From: a virus
Taxonomy: Duplodnaviria > Caudoviricetes
IMG/VR virus record: IMGVR_UViG_3300008262_003210
Length of the DNA stretch: 64,000 nt
Direction: 5' to 3' (one strand)
How positions within the stretch are numbered: position 1 is the stretch's first letter; each line of letters starts with the position of its first letter. Made by a program: the position numbers and the translations under genes. Positions 23,618-62,099 of the stretch are shown one piece after another. The notes under the pieces were generated by a model. It worked only from the letters and a program-made list of their open reading frames with translations, was not told the DNA's origin and ran no database searches.

Positions 23618-24132
23618 AAGAAAAGTTAAAACGAGCATATATGAAGACCGCAGAAACATTTGCGGAATTAAGTCATGCACGTAGACTTCATGTAGGTGCC
23701 ATTGTAGTCAAAGATGATAGGATTATCTCTATTGGCTACAATGGCATGCCCGCAGGTTGGGACAATAACTGTGAAGACGTTAAATGGGATTCAGGAGCTG
23801 GCGGATGGCTAAGTCCTGAAGAGATTCTAGAACAATATCCATACGAAGGGTGGCATGAACAAGCAGGTCGTAATGTGAGATATGGATTAAAAACTAAACC
23901 TGAGGTACTACATGCTGAAACAAATGCGATTGCCAAACTGGCTAAGTCTAACGAGTCTGGTCTGGGTGCTACTATGTTTATTACCCATGCTCCATGTTTG
24001 GACTGTGCCAAACTTATATACCAAAGTGGTATTGGGCACGTTCTATATAGGGACTCTTATAGGGATACTGGTGGTATCACGTTTCTTGAAAAATCAGGAA
24101 TTAAAGTAGAACAAATTGAAAAGGACGCCTGA
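23614..24132 (+). CDS. dCMP deaminase
   Basis: VGAIVV, GYNG, HAETNAI, PCLDCAK zinc motifs. Confidence 0.9.
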   Translation: MKEKLKRAYMKTAETFAELSHARRLHVGAIVVKDDRIISIGYNGMPAGWDNNCEDVKWDSGAGGWLSPEEILEQYPYEGWHEQAGRNVRYGLKTKPEVLHAETNAIAKLAKSNESGLGATMFITHAPCLDCAKLIYQSGIGHVLYRDSYRDTGGITFLEKSGIKVEQIEKDA

Positions 24133-24144
24133 GCGTCCTTTTTT
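24119..24144. terminator. bidirectional intrinsic terminator
   Basis: AAAAGGACGC-ctga-GCGTCCTTTT between convergent genes. Confidence 0.8.
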
Positions 24145-24153
24145 ATTGATTCA

Positions 24154-24867
24154 TTAGTCGCCGTAAATTTCTAACACCTCCTTGACGGCATCATGTCTTT
24201 CAATATCGTTCGAATCAAATTGAACAATATCAATATGTTTAGTTTGCTTACGTGCGAGTAGGTTGCAAAAATCTATCAATCCGTTATCGCGTAATCTGTC
24301 TGCCTGAGCTAAATCGCCTGTCACTACCATCTTGGACCCTTCTCCCAAGCGTGTAAGTAGCATCTTCATTTGATTTATAGTAGTATTCTGACATTCGTCA
24401 GCAATGATGTATGCGTTTTTGAATGTGCGTCCACGCATATACGCTAATGGGCTTATCTCGATAACTCCTTCCTCCAACATTTTTTTAATGTCTGTTTGTT
24501 TATAATACTCTGCAAATACGTCAAATATGGGTCTTGTCCAAGGTGCCATTTTTTCGTTCAAGTCACCTGGTAAAAACCCTAGATCTTCGTCCACAGAGAC
24601 GGCGGGTCTTGTAACTATGATTTTGTCAACTAATCCGTCCTGGAATAGTTTAATACCGTTTTGCACAGCCAGCAACGTTTTACCTGTGCCTGCGGGCCCA
24701 ATAGCAATAACAATACTGTTTTGCTCATCGTGCAGCTTGCTTAGGTATAGTTTCTGGTTAGGATTTCGTGCAGTGATTACTACACGCTGCTTCTTCGCGG
24801 GAAGATATGGTTCAAAATCAATTACTTTAACTTCTGATGTAAAGCGTTTCTTCACTCTTTTACTCAT
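24154..24867 (-). CDS. phoH: PhoH family ATPase
   Basis: GPAGTGKT, LGFLPGDL, PLAYMRGRTF, DECQN, LLTRLG, VTGD. Confidence 0.95.
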   Translation of the reverse strand: MSKRVKKRFTSEVKVIDFEPYLPAKKQRVVITARNPNQKLYLSKLHDEQNSIVIAIGPAGTGKTLLAVQNGIKLFQDGLVDKIIVTRPAVSVDEDLGFLPGDLNEKMAPWTRPIFDVFAEYYKQTDIKKMLEEGVIEISPLAYMRGRTFKNAYIIADECQNTTINQMKMLLTRLGEGSKMVVTGDLAQADRLRDNGLIDFCNLLARKQTKHIDIVQFDSNDIERHDAVKEVLEIYGD

Positions 24868-24947
24868 CTAAGTTGTTCTCCTACTCGTAAAAGTAGGACT
24901 TGTAGCGACCGCCCTTGATAACTACAGAGGTCCTACACATTTATTTA
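24868..24947 (-). promoter_or_regulatory. late-type TAAATA box plus structured phoH 5' leader with two alternative hairpins
   Basis: TAAATA on - strand 24942-24947; stems 24893-24899/24930-24936 and 24879-24885/24892-24898 share one arm; RBS AGGAG at 24878-24882. Confidence 0.6.
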
Positions 24948-25026
24948 CTGTATTTGTCAAAAAGTAAACTGATATGTTATGATTTTAAACCAGCTAAATA
25001 AGTATAGAAACTTTCCAGGACTTAAC

Positions 25027-25617
25027 ATGTACGATATTTTAGACATTATACGCAATATTGATAACTTATACGAAAACAACACTAGCCTAGCTATTTTAAA
25101 GGATGTTGAGCGTGTTATTGATCAACTAGACATTTATGCTTATGAAAACTGGGAAAAGGGCGAGTTGGCCTACGGACCCCAGGTTGATCGTCATTGGATA
25201 ACAGCAGGATTCATGTGGCCTGCTAAAGAAATGCCAAATCCTACAGCAGCCAAACGATTACAAGAAATAGGATGCAAAATAAAGTATCAACGTAGTCATT
25301 TGGTAGAACCTCGCAAAATTAAGACACATGAAGACATTAGACCCGGAACAAAAAAAGGTAAACTTGATCGTAAACCAATTTGGATTGTAGAAATACAAAT
25401 GCCAAAAAAAGTAGCATTTGATATGTATCGTGGATACATGGATAGAATGAAAGCTGAAACTGAACCTGATAAATCAGAACAGAAAAAACAAGCAATGCCT
25501 GGAGCAATGCCAGGAGCGATGCCAGGAGCGATGCCTGGCATGCCGCCAACAGGTGGAGCAATGCCTGCCGCTCCAACACCAGGAGCAGCGCCAGCAATGC
25601 CAGGAGCACCAGTATAA
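25027..25617 (+). CDS. hypothetical protein with PGAM low-complexity tail
   Basis: ATG 25027 follows AGGA and TAAATA(24994); track start 24979 likely too early. Confidence 0.7.
   Translation: MYDILDIIRNIDNLYENNTSLAILKDVERVIDQLDIYAYENWEKGELAYGPQVDRHWITAGFMWPAKEMPNPTAAKRLQEIGCKIKYQRSHLVEPRKIKTHEDIRPGTKKGKLDRKPIWIVEIQMPKKVAFDMYRGYMDRMKAETEPDKSEQKKQAMPGAMPGAMPGAMPGMPPTGGAMPAAPTPGAAPAMPGAPV
25492..25539 (+). repeat. 4 x 12-bp coding tandem repeat (AMPG)
   Basis: GCRATGCCWGGM units. Confidence 0.9.
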
Positions 25618-29050: not shown

Positions 29051-29100
29051 TTGACAGGTCCAATTAAATAGTGTAGTATACACATTATTATTGGACCTGT
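29051..29100 (+). promoter_or_regulatory. sigma70-like promoter enclosed in an 11-bp inverted repeat
   Basis: TTGACA(29051)-17-TAGTAT(29074); ACAGGTCCAAT 29054-64 / ATTGGACCTGT 29090-100, followed by T-run. Confidence 0.7.
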
Positions 29101-29110
29101 TTTTACGACT

Positions 29111-29965
29111 ATGATAGACTATTATAAAACATTAGGGGTTAACCCAACAGCTACTCCGGATGAAATTAAAAAAGCCTACAGAAGTCTAGCCAACAAACAT
29201 CATCCCGACAAAGGAGGAGATCAAGCTAGATTTAAAGATATTTCTGTAGCATACGACACACTAAGTGACGGTCAAAAACGTTCAGAATATGACCAAATGC
29301 GTATGGGCGGCGGGCCGCAAACTAGATTCCAATCTGGAGATTTTCAAGAATTTGCAGATATGTTTGGCGGAGCATTTGATCCTTTTGGTCATAGGTCTAA
29401 TCCATTTTATGATGTATTTGGCCGCGGAAGAAGAAATAGAGATTTAAACATTCAATGCCAACTTAGTTTACTCGATTCTTTTTTAGGTAAACAATTAGAA
29501 GCAAACTTTAGGTTGCCTAGCGGCAAGCCACAAACTGTAGTTATTAATGTTCCAGCAGGAATAAATCACGGAGAAACTATACGATACCAAGGGCTCGGTG
29601 ACGATAGTATTCCTAACGTACCTAGAGGAAGTTTAAATGTTACTATAATTGTTTTGCCAGATCCTAATTTTAGAAGAGAAGGCAACGATCTATATACTAC
29701 AGTAAACATAACTCCAATTGAAGCGATGATTGGTTGTAGGCGGAGAATAACATACATCACCGGTGAAGAAAAAGAACTTGACATAAGACCAGGCGTTGAA
29801 ACAGGCATTGAGTTTGCTAGCCACGGGTATGGGTTTACTGATCATAGGACTGGACAAAAAGGCAGATTTGTTATTGTAGTAAACATCAGAACGCCACACA
29901 TATCTGATCCTGAAATTATTCGTAAACTTCGAGAAATAAATGATGAAATTAGTCTTAGATCCTGA
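29111..29965 (+). CDS. dnaJ: DnaJ/CbpA-type co-chaperone lacking the zinc finger
   Basis: J-domain DYYKTLGV...HHPDKGGD, G/F region, C-terminal domain, no CxxCxGxG repeats. Confidence 0.9.
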   Translation: MIDYYKTLGVNPTATPDEIKKAYRSLANKHHPDKGGDQARFKDISVAYDTLSDGQKRSEYDQMRMGGGPQTRFQSGDFQEFADMFGGAFDPFGHRSNPFYDVFGRGRRNRDLNIQCQLSLLDSFLGKQLEANFRLPSGKPQTVVINVPAGINHGETIRYQGLGDDSIPNVPRGSLNVTIIVLPDPNFRREGNDLYTTVNITPIEAMIGCRRRITYITGEEKELDIRPGVETGIEFASHGYGFTDHRTGQKGRFVIVVNIRTPHISDPEIIRKLREINDEISLRS

Positions 29966-61149: not shown

Positions 61150-61296
61150 ATGAAGTGCGAAACATGTGGCGAAAATATTAAAATGGACTGTAACTGGAAG
61201 CAAGGAAGGTGCCCGCATATTCCTCCCATGCTAACAAGTTATCACTTTAGATATTATAATTTGGTACAGTGGATCAAAGGGCTTTTTAAGAGATAA
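61150..61296 (+). CDS. small Cys/His protein (48 aa, absent from ORF track)
   Basis: Hand-translated MKCETCGENIKMDCNWKQGRCPH...GLFKR. Confidence 0.55.
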   Translation: MKCETCGENIKMDCNWKQGRCPHIPPMLTSYHFRYYNLVQWIKGLFKR

Positions 61297-61308
61297 ATAT
61301 ATGCGTAC
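61291..61308 (+). promoter_or_regulatory. 18-bp element containing TAAATA, copy 1
   Basis: AGATAAATATATGCGTAC identical to 62063-62080. Confidence 0.7.
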
Positions 61309-61349
61309 ATTACTAAGGTGCCTTAGGGGCCTGGTAAAAGGAGACTAAA

Positions 61350-61829
61350 ATGACAGAGATACATGCCAAACCCATTGTAGATGGAAAATTTTGGATCGTC
61401 GAGCAAGACGGTAATAAAATAGCTATCCTACACAAAAAAGAAAACAACAAATTTTTGTTATCTAGTTCTAACGGCGAAGTAATGTTTAATAAAAAAGACG
61501 ACCTTACTAAAGAATTTGGTAAAGATTTTTTTATTAAAAATGAAAAAATAAAAGTTACTGCTGTTGAACAAAATGAATGTCACGGATATGCAACATCATG
61601 CAAACCTTTCAATCCTATGTATGACGTTCAAAGAAGATTGCCATTGTTTACAAAATCAAATGCCAGTAAAAGTCTTTACTGTGCTGGATACTATATCATC
61701 AAGTTTGATAAAGGTTGGGTAAAAAGTCATTGCCCTAAACTTATAACTATTGAACGTTATCCGTATAAAGGTCCTTTCAAAACAGAATTTGAAATGAAAC
61801 AGGTACTTGCAAATGCAAAATCAAATTAA
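61350..61829 (+). CDS. hypothetical protein
   Basis: AAGGAG RBS. Confidence 0.75.
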   Translation: MTEIHAKPIVDGKFWIVEQDGNKIAILHKKENNKFLLSSSNGEVMFNKKDDLTKEFGKDFFIKNEKIKVTAVEQNECHGYATSCKPFNPMYDVQRRLPLFTKSNASKSLYCAGYYIIKFDKGWVKSHCPKLITIERYPYKGPFKTEFEMKQVLANAKSN

Positions 61830-62062: not shown

Positions 62063-62099
62063 AGATAAATATATGCGTACTTATTTAGAGACGCATATA
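62063..62099 (+). promoter_or_regulatory. 18-bp element copy 2 plus 9-bp hairpin before the ATG
   Basis: TATATGCGT 62070-78 / ACGCATATA 62091-99. Confidence 0.7.

Follow-up and report, generated by a model that had tools for sequence, protein, structure and literature searches.

Few "auxiliary" genes are commoner in aquatic phages than phoH, which also serves as a standard marker for viral diversity. To our knowledge, neither its function nor its regulation has been established. The window analyzed here, a 64,000-nt stretch of DNA from an uncultured large ("giant") freshwater T4-like phage, raises the question of how such a gene might be controlled. A preliminary description of the window had proposed that the phoH leader can adopt either of two folds, one leaving the ribosome-binding site (RBS) free and the other burying it. 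We asked whether this leader is conserved as a folded RNA, which pairings its relatives preserve, and whether competition between these pairings might govern the translation of phoH.

Genome setting of phoH

The window has 37% G+C and its genes lie nearly all on the + strand, among them T4-type baseplate, DNA polymerase and clamp-loader genes. phoH (Table 1) is encoded on the - strand, flanked by the + strand genes for a dCMP deaminase and a virion protein, and the DNA upstream of it is antisense to + strand genes. It had been singled out as the only long - strand gene. This view holds, in that family support was found for phoH alone among the - strand ORFs of the window, while the others overlap the chain of + strand genes. 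A terminator-like hairpin follows the dCMP deaminase gene and parts it from the convergent phoH.

Table 1. Features of the phoH locus, with their coordinates in the window
Feature	Position	Strand	Sequence or evidence
Two-way intrinsic-terminator-like hairpin	24118-24143	both	AAAAGGACGC-CTGA-GCGTCCTTTT, flanked by A and T runs
phoH CDS, 237 aa	24154-24867 (ATG 24865-24867)	-	Pfam PF02562 PhoH, E 1.6e-74; phrog_170, E 2.3e-78
Shine-Dalgarno-like AGGAG, 10 nt before start codon	24878-24882	-	GGAG invariant in 111 leaders
Alternative hairpin P2, 8 bp	24879-24898	-	UCCUACUU (24891-24898), loop UUAC, GAGUAGGA (24879-24886)
Segment 2, GUCCUAC: 3' arm of P1 and anti-Shine-Dalgarno arm of P2	24893-24899	-	Shared by both inverted repeats
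Inner helix P1a, 3' arm, GCUACA	24901-24906	-	Fold, pair counts
GGUC-G-CUAC, alternative partner of segment 1 (P1')	24902-24910	-	ViennaRNA MFE of the 72-nt leader
Apical helix P1b (AUC / GGU) with 6-nt loop	24908-24919	-	Fold; GGCGGUC invariant in close clade
Inner helix P1a, 5' arm, UGUAGU	24921-24926	-	MFE and centroid fold
Segment 1, GUAGGAC: 5' arm of P1, RBS-like, predicted mRNA 5' end	24930-24936	-	Inverted repeat
TAAATA box, candidate late-type (T4-like) promoter element of phoH	24942-24947	-	Conservation
Divergent TAAATA box of virion-protein gene	24995-25000	+	Present in 159/159 related loci, at a fixed distance in 115

Conservation of the phoH leader

IMG/VR contained 414 phoH relatives of the window protein. 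Among the cultured phages of INPHARED there was no close relative, and the matches were confined to distant phoH coding sequence. In the best 80 of the 414 relatives, the leader was far more conserved than its surroundings: the TAAATA box, the hairpin and AGUAGGAG were near-invariant, and the spacers on either side varied in both sequence and length. PhoH itself shared just 73-97% identity, compared with the near-invariance of the hairpin and AGUAGGAG.

The position of the element was equally constant. A pattern describing the hairpin interior matched at least 120 contigs, once in each. In every IMG/VR contig examined (several hundred), the element adjoined phoH on its upstream side as a single copy, and phoH was the next gene downstream in all 206 leader copies that had enough downstream DNA. 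A covariance model built from 91 leaders found one site in the window, scoring 83 bits; no second copy of the leader was present within the window. When the search was keyed on the box and segment 1 alone, hairpin-bearing matches occurred solely before phoH, and the rest were chance matches with no hairpin.

The preliminary description had assigned the leader to no known Rfam class, and we agree: cmscan of positions 24500-25300 on both strands against Rfam 15, at E values up to 10, gave no family. Its sole match was a spurious lncRNA elsewhere, which scored 12.9 bits where the gathering score is 40.

In the close clade, the CUC and GGC nucleotides of the bulge and loop were near-invariant, though the helices tolerate change. 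In other phoH lineages unrelated sequence of 14-35 nt took the place of the hairpin interior, only the arms and a single arm-sequence copy persisting; the interior co-diverges with the PhoH lineage. These comparisons indicate that the leader is a conserved folded RNA, uncatalogued and widespread. It had also been suggested that the leader might respond to an antisense RNA. Within the window neither the loop nor the arms had an antisense partner, and the suggestion gains no support there.

The P1 hairpin

The - strand reads as first reported and does contain two perfect 7-nt inverted repeats that share one arm. The first, recovered by a repeat search (24893-24899 / 24930-24936, GUAGGAC with GUCCUAC), forms the helix that we call P1. 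What P1 encloses had been drawn as a 5-bp inner stem with a 16-nt loop. It is instead a 6-bp helix (P1a, UGUAGU with GCUACA, including one U.G pair) and a 3-bp helix (P1b, AUC with GGU) capped by a 6-nt loop. The 5' part of this loop varies in length among relatives and its GGC is invariant.

Considered on its own, the leader of the window folds with a z-score of -1.67, and 11 of 200 shuffles folded equally well; the surrounding 401 nt hold six perfect 7-nt inverted repeats. The finding in a single sequence is not beyond chance, and its significance comes solely from conservation and covariation among the relatives.

In a MAFFT alignment of 111 distinct leaders, 98.6% of the cells of P1 pairs were standard. 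The figure was 97.9% for 65 sequences including more distant members, in a model-based alignment that was fitted to the structure, which favors P1, and with which the MAFFT alignment agrees. Segment 1 paired with 24893-24899 in standard fashion in 98.7% of cases, with compensatory changes at three positions. Five P1 pairs had changed on both sides (U-A to C-G, G-C to A-U and A-U to G-C), and one sub-clade had lengthened P1 by two pairs, G-C and A-U, through coordinated changes on both sides. Within P1a, an A-U pair had become G-C in three sequences, and a U-A or U.G pair had become G-C in two. None of 500 shuffles reached the observed covariation score of P1, and partners slid by 1-3 columns paired in just 22-60% of cells; the shuffle test, like the permutation test applied to P2 below, treats the sequences without correction for phylogeny.

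Roughly 12% of the P1 cells were G.U pairs, including one invariant U.G. On the + strand each of these would be a C.A mismatch, and the structure therefore belongs to the phoH-sense RNA. Taken with the compensatory changes, the G.U pairs bear out the earlier proposal of a cis-acting RNA on this strand. These data indicate that the P1 hairpin is real and that it forms in the phoH-sense RNA.

A second helix over the ribosome-binding site

The second inverted repeat (24879-24885 / 24892-24898, UCCUACU with AGUAGGA) sets segment 2 against the RBS. The resulting helix, P2, had been described as 7 bp long and as burying AGGAG. The burial is correct, P2 covering the first four bases of the motif, and the length is not, as the helix extends to 8 bp. 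Because the central GUCCUAC arm is shared, P1 and P2 are mutually exclusive, which confirms the two alternative folds that had been proposed.

In the close clade, 95.7-97.3% of the P2 cells were paired. Pair 86/104 of P2 is U-A, changes to A-U in a sub-clade and is G-C in leader L445, giving three Watson-Crick types; the covariation of P2 within the close clade represents few independent events. Variation in segment 2 was nearly all C-to-U or A-to-G, which both of its partners tolerate. Conservation and covariation among homologous leaders, named at the outset as the check on such a structure, were thus found for both helices, each with compensatory changes.

Across lineages the SD flank, that is, the bases just 5' of the RBS, follows its own partner arm. 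The matching arms and flanks were CCUAC with GUAGG, CCUAU with AUAGG, CCUGU with ACAGG, UCCUUG with CAAGGA, and CCUUUA with UAAAGG. The mean energy of the P2 duplex was -6.66 kcal/mol when each flank was paired with its own arm and -5.61 kcal/mol when partners were swapped, and none of 2000 permutations, likewise uncorrected for phylogeny, was as low. Segment 2 has a G or U, able to pair with either partner, at those positions at which segment 1 and the SD flank disagree, as would be expected if both of its pairings were under selection. The GUA flank of the SD is conserved as well, beyond what SD function alone accounts for.

Some findings speak against a switch. The overlap between the P1 arm and the anti-SD was absent in several lineages (L322-326, L342, L340, L353 and L358). 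In the close clade, the ensemble accessibility of the SD was not below that of dinucleotide shuffles of the upstream part (0.30 versus 0.33); in distant leaders the values were 0.37 and 0.34 for the same kind of shuffle. In most of the distant lineages the MFE structure was P1 with the SD free.

A third pairing and the predicted energetics

The ViennaRNA MFE structure of the 72-nt leader was neither of the two folds in the preliminary description. It combined P2 with a third competing pairing that had been missed, P1', in which GUAGGACC pairs with GGUC-G-CUAC inside the hairpin. The predicted energies were -19.0 kcal/mol for state A (the P1 fold), -17.3 kcal/mol for state B (first arm free) and -22.0 kcal/mol for state C (P1' and P2 together); energy differences between states of ~3 kcal/mol are within the error of the energy model.

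P1' was paired in 95.7-98.4% of close-clade cells. No covariation of P1' was found in the close clade, and the five sequences that change segment 1 restore P1, not P1'. Distant lineages have, within the hairpin, an exact copy of the 3' arm that varies in step with the first arm: CCUGC was present in 13 of 15 leaders of the GCAGG type and CCUAC in those of the GUAGG types, and one lineage had GUCCUAC twice. Pairing as P1' would account for the invariant GGCGGUC loop. We consider P1' plausible but unproven.

The predicted minimum depended on the length of the chain. It was P1' at 36-40 nt (-12.5 kcal/mol), the P1 fold at 44-56 nt (-19.0 kcal/mol), P1' with P2 at 60 nt and longer (-22.0 kcal/mol) and, once the first coding bases were added at 80-84 nt, P1 with a hairpin between spacer and codons (-24.1 kcal/mol). 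Direct-path refolding barriers were predicted to be 10-14 kcal/mol, and the predictions amount to a multistable leader RNA with slow exchange between its folds. A temperature scan from 4 to 37 C left the ranking of the states unchanged and gave no pointer to a thermometer.

With regard to the last of these structures, the spacer CUUUUAC (24887-24893) is fully complementary to codons 2-4, GUAAAAG (24857-24863), on the - strand, and with 15 coding nt added the spacer:codon hairpin encloses both the RBS and the AUG in the predicted minimum. Its conservation is doubtful because the spacer varies among relatives.

TAAATA boxes and the presumed start of transcription

The TAAATA box of phoH showed no variation in the 111 close leaders and read TAAATA or TAAGTA in distant phoH lineages. 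The box had been noted earlier as lying 6 nt upstream of the first stem. It is where it was said to be, and the gap in the window measures 5 nt. Among 159 distinct leaders, which represent PhoH proteins down to about 60% identity, the gap from the box to the first paired base was 5 nt in 131 and 3-6 nt in all 159. This constancy agrees with the earlier suggestion that a transcript from the box would start at the stem. Read by the T4 late-promoter rule, the spacing places the hairpin at the 5' end of the mRNA, and P1 would probably be the very 5' end of a late-type phoH transcript. The box itself is presumed to act as the phoH promoter.

The divergent virion-protein gene has a conserved layout on the + strand, with TAAATA at 24995-25000, AGGA at 25017-25020 and ATG at 25027 (M-Y/H-D-I-L-D...). 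The ATG at 24979, taken as the start by the ORF finder, was not conserved in relatives, and tblastn matches to the virion protein start at residues 6-26. The two divergent boxes stand back to back, 47 nt apart. On the + strand, 8 of the 26 copies of TAAATA fall within the intergenic 4.4% of the window and are therefore enriched there. Because the same box precedes the virion gene and TAAATA is enriched between genes, phoH appears to share a late-type promoter with the structural genes. PHROGs scans of 28 window ORFs found no late sigma factor (gp55-like) family, and the label "late" is accordingly taken from the box and the neighboring virion gene. No anti-SD sequence was seen upstream of the phoH box in the window.

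Several other structures near TAAATA boxes or gene starts were observed. In L273, L014, L043 and others, the leader of the virion gene opens with a short palindrome (e.g. GTAGAAGCTTCTAGGGAC) right after TAAATA, and the 3' half of this palindrome runs into the AGGA of the gene's RBS. At 29055-29110 (+), directly before the gene at 29111, a 10-bp hairpin (CAGGTCCAAT ... ATTGGACCTG) leads into a T-run (TTTTT) and carries a TAAATA box in its loop; the loop also contains a smaller hairpin, GTGTA-GTA-TACAC, and the whole may be a terminator with an embedded promoter. A 17-nt string, GATAAATATATGCGTAC, occurs at 61294-61310 and 62066-62082 (+), ahead of the genes at 61350 and 62101. The copy at 62066 opens a hairpin, TATGCGT ... 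ACGCATA, and the pair looks like a repeated promoter-leader cassette.

The host and its use of Shine-Dalgarno pairing

An SD-like motif was present 4-15 nt before a plausible start in just 32 of 72 window ORFs, a low share for a phage of an SD-using host. The host may make little use of SD pairing, in which case the premise of SD sequestration would be weaker. In a pattern scan of contigs from prokaryotic assemblies, 19 of 20 matches were chance; L398, the one true leader copy in these assemblies, comes from a 2.3-kb contig that had been assigned to a Flavobacteriales MAG. This copy and the low share of SD-like motifs jointly give a weak hint that the host belongs to the Bacteroidota. If the host is indeed one of the SD-poor Bacteroidota, the weight given to SD sequestration needs rethinking.

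A proposed switch and its alternatives

The explanation that we favor, with confidence a little better than even, is that the ~70-nt phoH leader acts in cis as a conserved regulatory RNA, with competing pairings that control translation initiation. Beyond the observed conservation, strand, helices and mutual exclusivity, it has elements that we infer, namely the transcription start, the effect on translation and the trigger. Transcription would start at the G of GUAGGAC, 5 nt past the late-type TAAATA box. In the ON state, segment 1 would pair with segment 2 as P1, enclosing P1a and P1b, and AGGAG would be free. In the OFF state, segment 2 would pair with the RBS and its 5' flank as P2, and segment 1 would be single-stranded or parked on GGUC-R-CUAC as P1'. 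Because predictions place the states within ~3 kcal/mol of one another, behind barriers above 10 kcal/mol, the choice between folds would probably be made during transcription or by a trans-acting factor. Candidate triggers are a protein (possibly PhoH itself), the ribosome and folding kinetics, and of these a protein, PhoH included, seems the most attractive. A metabolite is an unlikely trigger since the inner hairpin differs completely between lineages, which speaks against a metabolite pocket. It could be speculated that the leader senses PhoH activity or a cellular signal, with the hairpin remodeled by a small ligand or by PhoH, which is predicted to be an RNA-dependent NTPase, and with feedback on phoH translation as the result; we regard this as unlikely.

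The main rival is a static 5'-terminal hairpin that stabilizes the mRNA against 5'-end-dependent decay, with P2 and P1' as by-products. The purine-rich segment 1 would then make its partner look like an anti-SD by coincidence. This is a possibility to be taken seriously, although we doubt it. It would explain why a hairpin 3-6 nt past the box is the one feature common to nearly all phoH lineages, and it fits the MFE structures of distant leaders (P1 with a free SD), an SD occlusion no greater than in shuffles and the lack of the P2 overlap in several lineages. It does not explain, however, why the GUA flank of the SD is over-conserved and, in five or more lineages, keeps pace with the partner arm, why segment 2 has G or U exactly where its partners differ, or why distant lineages retain an arm-sequence copy within the hairpin; nor would a mere stabilizer need near-invariant loop sequences. 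Such loops, with CUC and GGC near-invariant in the close clade despite tolerant helices, could be expected if the switch were operated by a protein and the hairpin or its repeated GYAGG/CCURC motifs were the site of a phage or host RNA-binding protein. One version would be autoregulation by PhoH, a predicted NTPase whose family has RNA helicases among its members. The co-divergence of the interior with the PhoH lineage points in this direction, as do predicted barriers above 10 kcal/mol, which would favor a helper, and the links of PhoH-family proteins to RNA (PMC5101352; bioRxiv 10.64898/2026.10.21.760802); YbeZ, a PhoH-like protein, interacts with the RNase YbeY (PMC5101352). The RNAs reported in association with PhoH2 are, however, long and belong to PIN-PhoH proteins rather than to a 237-aa stand-alone PhoH, and P1' pairing would partly account for the conserved loops. 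We consider a protein-operated switch of this kind distinctly unlikely.

A classical metabolite riboswitch, in which P1, P1a and P1b form the aptamer and a ligand such as a nucleotide, phosphate or ppGpp stabilizes the ON state, would be consistent with mutually exclusive helices laid out like an expression platform, with the internal- and apical-loop nucleotides conserved in the close clade and with the ligand-free default fold, which is predicted to be OFF. We nevertheless think it very unlikely. Other lineages retain the arms but have an unrelated interior of 14-35 nt, so there is no conserved binding core; the element is a single irregular hairpin with neither junction nor pseudoknot, and even at E values up to 10 there was no Rfam match. 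The ligand-sensing label of the preliminary description finds no support here, as an interior that changes fully across lineages leaves no conserved pocket visible. The element might also act at the level of DNA or transcription, whether as an intrinsic terminator or attenuator, as an operator for the two divergent promoters or as a T4-type gate whose late promoter skips an inhibitory arm lying upstream. It does lie between two back-to-back TAAATA boxes, 3-5 U follow the hairpin in most close relatives, and T4 e, soc, 49 and I-TevI pair SD-sequestering hairpins with late promoters (PMC3014915). On the other hand, G.U pairs and compensatory changes point to an RNA and speak against a DNA operator. 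The U-run is not conserved, being CUACAUCCCC in one sub-clade and CUUAAC in other relatives, and an intrinsic terminator was absent from the consensus scan. The box is upstream of every arm, so transcripts from it hold the whole switch, and the DNA further upstream is antisense to + strand genes. The covariation pattern appears to have largely refuted a DNA- or transcription-level reading, which we judge to be extremely improbable.

Significance

The preservation of the leader across hundreds of uncultured phage genomes suggests that phoH is under specific post-transcriptional control. What is new is an uncatalogued RNA motif in which the promoter stands ahead of a three-arm competition, unlike the classic T4 gates with a promoter in the hairpin. 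The switch that we favor also provides an object of ~70 nt with which to ask when PhoH is made, what flips the fold and whether PhoH acts on RNA. Should the leader indeed sense PhoH activity or a cellular signal, it would be the first RNA substrate of, and a functional handle on, the most widely used phage marker gene of unknown function, and it would parallel the lineage-specific RNAs beside bacterial phoH2 genes.

Comparison with known systems

The phoH leader resembles several characterized leaders in part. In the T4 genes e (lysozyme), soc, 49 and I-TevI, the late promoter is situated within a hairpin's 5' arm or beyond it, and late transcripts lack the inhibitory arm (PMC3014915). The phoH leader shares with these genes a T4-like phage, a late-type TAAATA beside the structure and a possible SD-sequestering cis hairpin. 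In contrast to them, the phoH box stands 3-6 nt before all of the arms, and every transcript therefore includes one more 5' arm as a rival for the anti-SD arm. Such a layout leaves refolding, and not promoter choice, as the means of control. A promoter-in-hairpin gate of the T4 type is itself excluded, as the box was upstream of the first arm in 159/159 leaders.

The expression platforms of translational riboswitches and RNA thermometers consist of an anti-anti-SD, an anti-SD and an SD, the middle segment pairing with either neighbor. The phoH leader likewise has three segments, with one fold that frees the RBS and another that buries it; it differs from riboswitch platforms in having no conserved aptamer core, known ligand or Rfam match. 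The E. coli ompA leader carries a 5'-terminal stem-loop that acts as a stabilizer. Like it, the phoH hairpin is stable and is predicted to start at or within a few nt of the mRNA 5' end. Unlike that of ompA, its 3' arm is complementary to the gene's own RBS and changes with it.

Finally, lineage-specific structured RNAs, long and multistem, have been described beside bacterial phoH2 (PIN-PhoH) genes, among them a named motif of 357 nt (bioRxiv 10.64898/2026.10.21.760802). The likeness to our leader is that in both cases a structured RNA lies next to a gene of the PhoH family. Those RNAs are bacterial and accompany PIN-PhoH fusions, whereas the element reported here is the ~70-nt mRNA leader of a stand-alone phage PhoH.
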